Positions 13,736-17,419 of a stretch of 64,000 bases of DNA are shown here, piece after piece. The stretch's first letter is position 1; every line of letters begins with the position of its first letter. Source of the stretch: Psilocybe cubensis (taxonomy: Eukaryota); the NCBI GenBank assembly GCA_017499595.2, contig CM039001.1, positions 3,100,001 to 3,164,000 on the forward strand, given 5' to 3'. The notes below the pieces were generated by a model that saw nothing but the letters and a program-made list of their open reading frames with translations, was not told the origin of the DNA and did not search any database. Both the position numbers and the translations under genes were made by a program.

Positions 13736-15063
13736 TTTAATTATTGGAAGATTGATTTTTCTGCCGGAGTAAGAAAGCCTGCTTCAAAAAGAATGTGTAG
13801 GGAGTGTAAAAAGCAGCAAGCCAAAAGACCAGGGGATGCAGCCGGGCAAGCCCAAAAAGAACGACTATACAAAAAGGGTTCAGTCAGAGGGGGTAGGAAT
13901 ATATATATGAGAAACTTACTTAGGGCACGGGGAGGAAGAAAAAGAAAGAACGAACGAAAGAGGGTGGCAAATAAGACATGATGGCGACGAGATCAGAGTA
14001 TTTGTAGCAATCCAAACTTAGGGCGTTCCACTGCTTTGGTTCCTTTCGTGTGAGTTGATTTGATTGGTTTCGGTCAGTGCGGTTATCCTCAGCTCATTTC
14101 TATGGCAATCCAAGATGGTCCCCTCACACTTATTTTTCGGCTGCAAATTCCTACTCGACTATGCACAGTAACCCGGTGGTTGCGTATTCTATCTTTTATC
14201 GTTGTCGACTGTCCAACCATTACAGTACACTACTTCACTTGGCCAGTTCTACCTTGTTGTTGGACTTGAAGCGGGTATATTTTGTTCGATTCTTACTGGT
14301 GCCGAGCCTACGTTCAAGCCAGGGCCTATCGCTATCCAGCAAATTTTGACCATTCAGATCGAAGAGCCGTGAAATGCCGTCAAAATGTCTTGAATAACCC
14401 AAAGTTCAAGAATTAATCAAAGCATATGATTTGGCCAAGCCATAACTTTCTTACTCTACTTGCCATTGGCGTTCAGTTTTCATTGCACAAATCTGTCCAG
14501 TGACGGATGAACGTCCCTAATGAACACCGAAACAACTCGAAGAATCGATAAGCGCAGAATGCATAGATCCATATGTCTTTGTCTTTTTCCTTTCCTTCCC
14601 CAAGCAGAGTACTGATCCATCACTCTTTGCACTGGGCCGTTGTCATAGCCATCACCTTGATCCGCTCCCTTGGTCCTCCAAGACTTTGGGCAGCTTCGAG
14701 CAGCCACAGGCCGCATGAGGTGTTAGCGGTTCTCACTCCGAACAACCAAGGCTGAGCTTCGGACGAAGTGATTTAGTGGAAGATCAATGCTGGAAATGTT
14801 CTTGAAATATACTAGGGTACCTTGAAGTGGGGCTACAGTTACAGTACCTTTGAAAAATTCGTCAAATTTTAGAATATGGCTGCACCTTGTCATGAAAGGT
14901 CAATCGTTCCAAAAAAAATTAATTACTCAGTCTGGACAATAACCATTCATACTTCAAAACAGCAAAGCTTGACCACAGTTGATGATGCGAACTATCAAAC
15001 TTGAGATATGAACGGATTAAATCATCAACCATCTGGCGGGCAGCCGGCAGCAACGGTGCAACA

Positions 15064-17419
15064 TCACAGATGCTTGCGAGCCAGCCACCGCGATACCATC
15101 GCGAATGATTCTGCGGGTTTATCATGGGGGACGTAAAAGGCGCAAAAAGATCATCAGTCTCTGAATCATATCTGCGAAGTGGAGCTATAAAAAGATACTC
15201 ATCATATGCCCCGCCCCTCTGATGGTAGCGAAGGTGAGTAGAGGCGTCTCTTTCACCTCGCCTGCTTTGACACCGTCAACAGTCCAGTCGCGCCATTCTT
15301 CGTCGGCGTACGATGCTTGTCCGCTCCATTCAAGTTTGTCGACCCACAGTTGGTTGGCGATATAGTTGCATTGCCAATCATATGTGCCAGCGTATATAAG
15401 TACACGGACACCACGATCAAGCAAGTTGGCAACATAATCTTGGGTGTGTACGGCCCATTTGTCCAAATGCGCTGCAAAATTTTGCCCAACAACCCGTGAG
15501 CAAGCTTCAAAATTGTAAGGGCTTTCAACTCCTAGTAGCTCTTGTGTCTCGGGGAGGTTGAGATATGTCTTAATGACATTCATTTCTCTATAGCAGAGCT
15601 CGCCTTCGCATGGCTACCAACGACGCATTGTAAACCCAGAGCACAACGTCAGCAAAAGTACGGTGGAAACAGGATGCTACAAGACATCATCATCACCTTC
15701 GTTATGTCATACACGTTTCTCCCTGAAAATGCTCAATGAACGGAGCACACGGAACACGTCGATCACATACCTGATGCATGCATCGCAGTGGAGAGTTCGC
15801 TATCACAAAAATTGACAGCTGCTTGACAGTTTATGGAGTCAAACCGGTCTACACAGCTCTGACGCATCGCTTTCTGGCAACGTGGTAGCTGATAATCCCA
15901 AATGATGAAGTTTGCGTTGTTTTGTTCAAAAAATCCATCGTTGTAAGATAATCACAGGATTTTTCAAGCCGCAACAGCACGAATTAAATAAACCATGCGA
16001 CAGTGATAGGCGGAATGTTACCGAAGACTCACCGCAGTTTTCATCCTTACGCATGTTGATATGGATTGGAAAGGAACAGGTAGAGACGCAGTGCCACATT
16101 CAACTTCGTATCGACCTTGGTAGAGGCTTTTCGTGGGAATGCCTCATCAGCGTCTGTTTAATGAACTGAGATGAAATGAATCCGACGTACGTTGAGATAT
16201 CGGTGATTCCATTTCCAATAAGGACACTTTGCAGATTAATAATTGATCCCCCTTCTCGGAGAGCGATCTGGTTTTTGTCGTATATTTCACTGGCAAAAAC
16301 AGGAAGATACCGGCCCTAAATGTGAGAGACGCAGATGCATCGGACATTGATCTGCATGAACATGGAAACAAACGAACGCCATACGATTCGCCCGACAGAT
16401 GCAGAGGTCTTCCAGAAAACTGAGTAAATGTATCGAAAAAGATGGTAATGAAGGCATGGACATTTTTGGCAGCATCTTCTGTTGTCTCGACGGTTTCTCC
16501 ATAGTCTGCATAGGAAAATCCGACTCCAACGCTGTGAAAAACAGATTCAGGATGTTCGGAGCCTTTAATGAGAGGGAGATAAAGCGAGCTCACGGTTGAT
16601 CTAAAAAGAAAATATTCGCCTCCGAGTTCCAGGAGTATGGATTCCACACTGTGCCATTAGATGAATTATTCTGCATGTCAATGCTGCATGGACCTGGTCA
16701 TAAACATAAATTTTAGAGGCACTTTTGTCCAATTTGTGTGGAGGAAGATTTACCCAATTCCATTAACAAGCCCGTCGCAGAAGAGCATCCAGGACCTGAT
16801 AATTAACGATATACTATGTGAAGTGGTATGTTGCTTGACTACCGAAACCGACAAACCTCCATTGATCCACATTATAACATCATCTAAAGTCCAAGAATGA
16901 GTTCCCGATAATACAGTGTTGCTATCGGTACAAGGACAATTGGCATGTACCTTTCTCAGGATCGCGTCGACTCTCGAAGAAATAGAAGAACATGTGTTTA
17001 GCACCGGCGTCGACGTCTAGGTATCCTGTGAAGACGCTAATGAAAACGAGAGAATTGAGTGAAGCTTGCGTAAGTCACGATGGCAATAGATTTAAAGTTG
17101 GTGAGCCTGGGATAGCTCGCCACTAGTAAAGATTCTCAAAAACTGGCAATCCGACATACTTGACAGTAGAATCGCAAAAGTTGGTTTTCTTCACGCGAAT
17201 GCGAGTATTCGGAAACGCAGGGTGAGAAAGGGTTGTAAAGTCTGTTGAGCCGATTGACGACAAATGAAGAGATTGGGCTTCGGACGAATTGTAGTTGTAG
17301 GAAGCCGTGCCAGCCTGAGAGGCGACAGTAAACTTGGCTTGTTCAGAACCATGATAAGCTGCAGCCAGAGATACAGTTGCACAGATAGCTAAGACTCGAC
17401 AGAGACTACGAAAGACCAT
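15064..17419 (-). CDS. Serine carboxypeptidase, family S10 (carboxypeptidase Y-like)
   Basis: Signal peptide, WINGG|PGCSS, GESY, AGTYDWQCN and GAGHM|VPHDKP. The last intron is AT-AC (15133-15202). Confidence 0.93.

Follow-up and report, generated by a model that had tools for sequence, protein, structure and literature searches.

A U2-type AT-AC intron one codon after the catalytic histidine of a carboxypeptidase gene in mushroom-forming fungi

A serine carboxypeptidase gene of Psilocybe cubensis carries a last intron that begins with AT and ends with AC. It lies in the window, i.e., the whole analyzed stretch of 64,000 nucleotides (contig CM039001.1, positions 3,100,001 to 3,164,000), to which all positions below refer. 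By every feature tested, this intron 11 is a U2-type (type II) AT-AC intron, and it is common to several orders of mushroom-forming fungi rather than a local oddity. We consider it probable that it is constitutively spliced, descends from a GT-AG intron, has co-adapted ends and is entrenched, and that it does not regulate the enzyme.

Gene structure and splicing of the last intron

The gene is located on the minus strand (15064..17419) and was delimited using RNA joints, translation and its match to the Pfam family PF00450. According to the RNA joints and the translation, it consists of 12 exons encoding 503 amino acids, interrupted by ten GT-AG introns and the AT-AC intron. The PF00450 domain contains the Ser, Asp and His motifs (GESYG at residue 219, GTYDWQC at 420 and GAGHM at 477), and the orthologue P0002 matched PDB 1wpx/1ysc with an e-value of 1.7e-93. 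On sequence grounds, the gene product is a carboxypeptidase Y-like member of peptidase family S10 and thus a predicted carboxypeptidase. Exon 11 (15203..15613, minus strand; 137 codons, from RNA contigs and translation) includes the catalytic Asp motif GTYDWQC and ends with GAGHM; the codon of His480 is at 15208-15206, the His motif having been placed by translation and by alignment of the orthologue with yeast carboxypeptidase Y. The coding part of exon 12 (15064..15132, minus strand) contributes 22 residues, from VPHDKP to the stop.

Intron 11 is 70 nt long, in phase 0, and occupies 15133..15202 on the minus strand between the Met codon after the catalytic His and a Val codon. Read from 15202 to 15133, its first letters are ATGAGTATC and its last letters are CCTTTTAC. 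The 5′ splice site ATGAGT (15197..15202, minus strand) is the U2 consensus GTRAGT with G1 changed to A, and the exon before it ends in ATG. A U2-type branch site, CTGAT, is predicted from its motif at 15153..15157 (minus strand), with the branch A at 15154, 22 nt from the 3′ end. The sequence then continues with a pyrimidine-rich tract and the 3′ splice site TAC (15133..15152, minus strand), and no AG occurs between branch site and acceptor.

Four of five public runs were compared with the locus, two of them RNA-like (X1, depth 41, and X2, depth 31; one study) and two DNA (X3 and X5). None of the five runs is recorded as RNA; the RNA status of X1 and X2 is an automatic guess, and the behavior of these runs is spliced. 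In both RNA-like runs, a single contig skips exactly 15133-15202 with zero letters of slide ambiguity, and the same contigs also skip all ten GT-AG introns of the gene. Contigs drop rare forms, and splicing efficiency is not readable from them. In both DNA runs the intron is present, with no difference inside it and both ends kept, and the X5 strain departs from the window at 12 other letters and by a 13-nt insertion, all outside intron 11. Since the RNA-like contigs skip the intron and the DNA runs leave it unchanged, an assembly error and a misplaced junction are both ruled out as the source of its ends. The preliminary description of this DNA, made from its letters, had placed an AT-AC intron at 15133..15202; the RNA-like contigs across the junction now confirm this, and its reservation that the terminal bases might really be GT/AG in the reads is excluded by X3 and X5.

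Several observations concern the surroundings of the intron. The insertion in X5 is located at window position 14962 in the 3′ untranslated region. At position 16666 in exon 5, both DNA runs have A and the window and both RNA-like runs have T, which is probably a strain allele. Upstream of the carboxypeptidase contig, after a gap of about 140 nt, a second RNA-like contig begins (17609-17800) and extends beyond the compared stretch; it possibly represents a divergent neighbor gene.

Conservation of the intron

A metagenome scan using the exon-11 alignment yielded 38 loci. The whole intron is found at the same codon in 30 of these, and all 30 have the form ATRAGT..AC, so the comparison of orthologous introns, also named earlier as a check, came out in favor of the AT-AC ends. 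One locus (L047) has GT..AG at the same site. Another lacks the intron and matches a Rhizopogon protein at 100%; it is probably a transcript. The rest comprises two loci with an AT donor and no scorable acceptor, one that ends before the site and three unrelated weak matches. Including the window, 23 donors are ATAAGT and eight are ATGAGT, and there are 27 distinct introns of 49-80 nt, which form 14 clusters when exons are grouped at 85% identity. The interior of the intron varies freely, the ends do not: ATRAGT follows an exonic G in all 31 AT-donor introns scored, the window included, and all 31 end with AC.

The donor is also unusually complete beyond its first two bases. RAGT at +3 to +6 is present at 15/15 AT-AC loci vs. 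15/133 scored introns 1-10 of the same loci (the 15 loci were picked for length and spread, L047 was left out, and a few automatic intron calls are doubtful), and in one of the ten other introns of the window gene. Fisher's test gave p of 1e-12 for these counts, a value which overstates independence as the loci are related. At the sequence level, the excess of RAGT points to compensation for the lost G1. Intron presence varies elsewhere in the gene: intron 4 is apparently absent in L035, L036, L041, L042 and L043, and intron 3 in L046 and L047; L047 is in addition without intron 2, and an extra intron interrupts its exon 11.

Public protein databases carry traces of the same intron. From the best 120 homologues listed, one paralogue (P0095) was set aside and 119 orthologues were scored, of which 65 end with VPxDKP and 54 have a wrong C-terminus. 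Among the latter is P0001, named Psilocybe cubensis, which equals the product of the window gene to residue 481 and then reads through the intron to a stop. After the point of divergence, 48 of the 54 go on with M or I, as a read-through of an AT donor would, and none with V. Agaricales, Boletales, Russulales, Gloeophyllales, Plicaturopsis and Polyporales are among the groups covered. The interpretation of such proteins was calibrated with P0001, which corresponds to the window, and P0475, which corresponds to the AT-AC intron of locus L026 bar one residue. Read-throughs of paralogues start with V in 20/20 cases and have the last residue expected of AG in 6/6 scorable cases. When 50% representatives were searched, outgroups and a further read-through of the type M..YVPHDK (P0235) were gained, and a search of a viral collection gave one irrelevant match.

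Spliceosome type

Introns of the U12 type carry the 5′ site RTATCCT and the branch site TCCTTAAC near the 3′ end. Measured against these consensus motifs, all 31 AT introns show three to five mismatches at the donor and at least two at the branch motif. A YTRAY branch motif, judged as a motif only, is present 12-37 nt from the intron end in all 31, the window included. The earlier assignment of the donor ATGAGT to the U2 rather than the U12 type is borne out by these counts.

Family searches of the genome located the snRNAs U2 (three copies), U6 (three copies) and U4, and GTAGTA is present in the genome's U2 snRNA. The gene loci are L084:1509-1642 and L009-L014 (U4, three U2, three U6). For U11 and U12, the snRNA family search gave no match in the genome, but the same kind of search missed U1, for which it returned nothing; the snRNA search can thus miss divergent genes. 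An 11-nt U1 pattern had 43 unspecific matches, and Rfam scans of 30 of these gave no U1. For U4atac and U6atac, nothing exceeded the cut-off: the weak U4atac match is U4, one of two weak U6atac matches is U6, and the second belonged to no family in an Rfam scan. Searches for the minor-spliceosome proteins PF16021 and PF18036 found nothing, had no positive control and are not counted. The U11/U12 check put forward in the preliminary description gave no genome match, in a search which missed U1 too. Two surveys found no convincing case of a minor intron in Basidiomycota (PMC10639083, PMC11347168). From the motifs and the snRNA set, we infer that intron 11 is removed by the major spliceosome. The earlier proposal of a major-spliceosome AT-AC intron with compensatory ends is thereby supported by the junction, the motifs and the presence of U2, U4 and U6.

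Origin of the AT-AC ends

At this codon boundary, all three close paralogues in the genome carry a GT-AG intron; as they are canonical at this place, the position of the intron predates its AT-AC ends. The one GT-AG orthologue found as DNA is L047, whose nearest protein is from Sphaerobolus (a search with the L047 exon gave two proteins only), and the Sphaerobolus model reads through with V-S. In this model, P0121, V-S follows GAGHM and M stands before VPHDK, a combination not accounted for by simple read-through of a GT-AG intron. The orthologues and Sphaerobolus form one group (0.98, FastTree). The separation of Sphaerobolus and L047 from the AT group has a bootstrap of 97 in IQ-TREE (45 rows) and weak support, 0.60 and 0.69, in FastTree. 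Given GT-AG ends in the paralogues and in the Sphaerobolus-like L047, a single change from GT-AG to AT-AC is the simplest history, and from the sequences the intron most likely arose from a canonical GT-AG intron and not from a U12 intron. In a distant S10 paralogue (L116:783-850, minus strand; G000:C4 near 3,432,200), the DNA shows a canonical GT-AG intron that splits the Met codon following the catalytic His and lies one base upstream of where intron 11 sits.

A canonical phase-0 GT-AG intron would thus have changed both ends once, after the split of Phallomycetidae and before Agaricales, Boletales, Russulales, Gloeophyllales and Polyporales separated. With published ages of 132 Myr for Agaricomycetidae (125-191 in cited studies) and 280 Myr for Agaricomycetes, the AT-AC state would have arisen between these two dates (PMC7550596).

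Possible later exits from AT-AC

In Pleurotus, Lentinula, Collybiopsis, phlebioid polypores and Punctularia, the state of the intron was read from protein read-throughs alone, and some of these protein models may hide predicted splices. Four read-throughs start with G (P0082, P0085, P0116 and P0384), and three of them have Q directly ahead of the shifted last exon, consistent with a GT-AG intron that has moved one base into the Val codon. In the exon-11 stretch, P0085 shares 98% identity with P0079, which is spliced correctly. Apart from P0116, which groups with Punctularia in the tree, the G-first proteins are found among phlebioid and related Polyporales, where 17 rows contain no M or I read-through. 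The Polyporales group has a bootstrap of 95 (IQ-TREE), and an AU test did not reject a position of the slid Polyporales outside the AT-AC group (p 0.122). Their nesting inside this group leans on the accepted species tree.

A different combination of ends is suggested for other genera. The proteins of Pleurotus eryngii, P. ostreatus and Collybiopsis confluens suggest an AT donor together with an acceptor whose last base is G, for which AT-AG is the simplest reading; alternatively, the Pleurotus intron may end with CG instead of AG. By the same kind of reading, the ends would be GC-AG in Lentinula guzmanii and GA-AG in the L. edodes group. AT-AG and GA-AG ends are reported in such fungi, since the curated Ganoderma annotation counts 21 and 35 such sites, respectively (PMC11590231). 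As read from these sequences, we slightly favor a round trip at one intron, in which GT-AG would have become AT-AC in the ancestor of most mushroom-forming fungi and would then have been left by two routes. One route would be stepwise, via AT-AG (Pleurotus, Collybiopsis) to GC-AG or GA-AG (Lentinula), and the other a one-base slide to a phase-1 GT-AG intron, taken at least twice (phlebioid and related Polyporales; a Punctularia-like fungus). Yeast genetics suggests that intermediates changed at a single end are blocked at step 2, and intron sliding is described in the literature as very rare.

Alternative readings and persistence

Enumeration of donor and acceptor pairs uncovered a cryptic GT-AG pair of 88 nt (15111..15198, minus strand). 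Its GT at 15198 and AG at 15111 keep the frame and reach the same stop, with MK in place of VPHDKPAE, a segment of a motif common to yeast carboxypeptidase Y; the preliminary description, which had found only frameshifts or stops among the GT-AG alternatives it tried, was wrong on this point. Its other statement, that solely the 70-nt AT-AC cut restores the motif HMVPxDxP, holds among the pairs tried. Further AT-AC pairs of 73 and 64 nt were enumerated as well; neither was among the RNA joints. One could suppose that this canonical, in-frame pair is the true junction, or that the AT-AC ends are an artifact of assembly or reverse transcription, as pairs of the 88-nt type are used in some public models of relatives, where they explain the MK/IK-type C-termini (P0003, P0023, P0049, P0090, P0457 and P0480). 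However, the RNA contigs make the 70-nt cut at a joint without a repeat, the DNA runs confirm the letters, identical ends recur at 30 other loci, and the Logan-derived proteins P0420, P0421 and P0492 (Gloeophyllum, Schizophyllum and Postia clusters) end with VPHD(K/R)P, unlike the genome models. The 88-nt junction was not found among the joints of the X1 and X2 contigs, and as the main form it is already refuted; we give the supposition as a whole next to no credence. It is likewise very improbable, albeit a little less so, that intron 11 goes back to a U12 (minor) AT-AC intron which the major spliceosome took over, with the GT-AG forms as conversions. AT-AC ends are typical of U12 introns, and reversions to G..AG seem to occur in the family, so that parsimony could mislead. 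Nevertheless, no U12 donor or branch motif was found in any of the 31 introns, the intron is in phase 0, which minor introns tend to avoid (PMC10639083), and at least two separate conversions would be needed, in the paralogue clade and in the Sphaerobolus-like GT-AG orthologue.

Under the favored origin from a GT-AG intron, splicing by the major spliceosome would work as follows. A perfect RAGT at +3 to +6 together with G at −1 would offset the lost pairing of G1, U2 would read the CTGAT branch site, and A(+1) and C(−1) would replace the terminal G/G contact needed for the second step. Parker and Siliciano reportedly showed in 1993 that AC suppresses the G1A change in yeast, with A and C replacing a non-Watson-Crick G-G contact. 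Work in yeast and human has established that A/C ends can substitute for the G-G contact of step 2 (PMC1557818, PMC11585973, PMC4299874). A change at one end alone would impair splicing, which is probably why AT-AC is kept, and a few lineages would appear to have left this state later, via AT-AG or a one-base slide to GT-AG. The persistence of the intron could also have another cause, namely that the weak ends were selected to throttle the enzyme: a slow second step, retention or cleavage at the first step only would lower or time the production of full-length protein, similar to the limited production of active enzyme suggested in the preliminary description. Translation of the retained form stops five codons after GAGHM and lacks the last 22 residues, and the intron, one codon past the catalytic His, has persisted for more than about 130 Myr (PMC7550596). 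Further, in Aspergillus telomerase RNA step 2 is prevented by an A at +1 (PMC4299874), and for one Termitomyces gene a retained isoform (P0466) is annotated beside the spliced P0026 and P0464. On the other hand, the X1 and X2 contigs are all spliced (although contigs drop rare forms), a canonical intron occupies the same place in the paralogues, so the position is older than AT-AC, annotated retention extends to Somion (P0384), where the intron is inferred to be GT-AG, and several lineages seem to have abandoned AT-AC. A limiting role is thus not supported, and we regard it as unlikely. Entrenchment is preferred, because long persistence is expected once both ends are co-adapted.

Comparison with known AT-AC introns

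U2-type AT-AC introns have been described mainly from animals. The type II is thus a known kind of intron, to which the carboxypeptidase intron is added. Those of SCN4A/SCN5A and TAF2 have the same AT-AC ends, an otherwise consensus U2 donor and long conservation in orthologues (PMC1557818). The animal introns are interpreted there as relics being lost, whereas the paralogues suggest that the mushroom intron was gained from GT-AG and that exits followed, in a lineage which, unlike the animal hosts, is reported to be without a minor spliceosome. Sheth et al. (2006) counted 15 type II AT-AC introns in human, six in mouse and three in fly, and mention hypothesized AT-AC cases in xylanase genes of filamentous fungi (PMC1557818). 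Among the splice sites annotated in fungi, 0.019% are AT-AC (PMC7072748, Table 1). In Ganoderma lingzhi, likewise a mushroom-forming fungus, 13 AT-AC sites (0.014%) are reported, and the AT-AC intron of its DNA polymerase delta gene was confirmed by Sanger sequencing and missed by gene predictors (PMC11590231). Spliceosome type, conservation and history of these introns are not given in the accessible text of that paper, and the word “carboxypeptidase” is absent from its searched supplement. We found no published account of the carboxypeptidase intron in the literature, although a listing in a table of a subscription paper or in a bioRxiv supplement is still possible.

The same substitution of A and C at the ends is known from the yeast G1A/AC combination and an AT-AC intron of RPL30 (cited in PMC11585973 and PMC1557818). 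However, these are laboratory mutants or an alternative product, whereas the mushroom intron is spliced in this way as the main form of a conserved gene. Within fungi, the 5′ site AUA(A/C)GU of Aspergillus telomerase RNA (Kannan et al., 2015; PMC4299874) is a donor of the same A+1 kind, also used by the major spliceosome. There, A+1 blocks step 2 and the exon is released, whereas in the mushroom intron an AC acceptor accompanies complete splicing.

In practice, the unusual ends damage gene models: the C-terminus right after the catalytic His is corrupted in 54 of the 119 best-listed public orthologues, including P0001. RNA support, a broad set of orthologues and paralogues which show the direction of change, i.e., a gain from GT-AG and not a leftover, come together at this site, and the intron thus speaks to how AT-AC introns arise. 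If the exits were confirmed in DNA, they would form a natural series for the terminal-base contact of the spliceosome and for one-base intron sliding. If the round trip is true, these fungi would hold living single-end intermediates and repeated intron sliding at one testable site.
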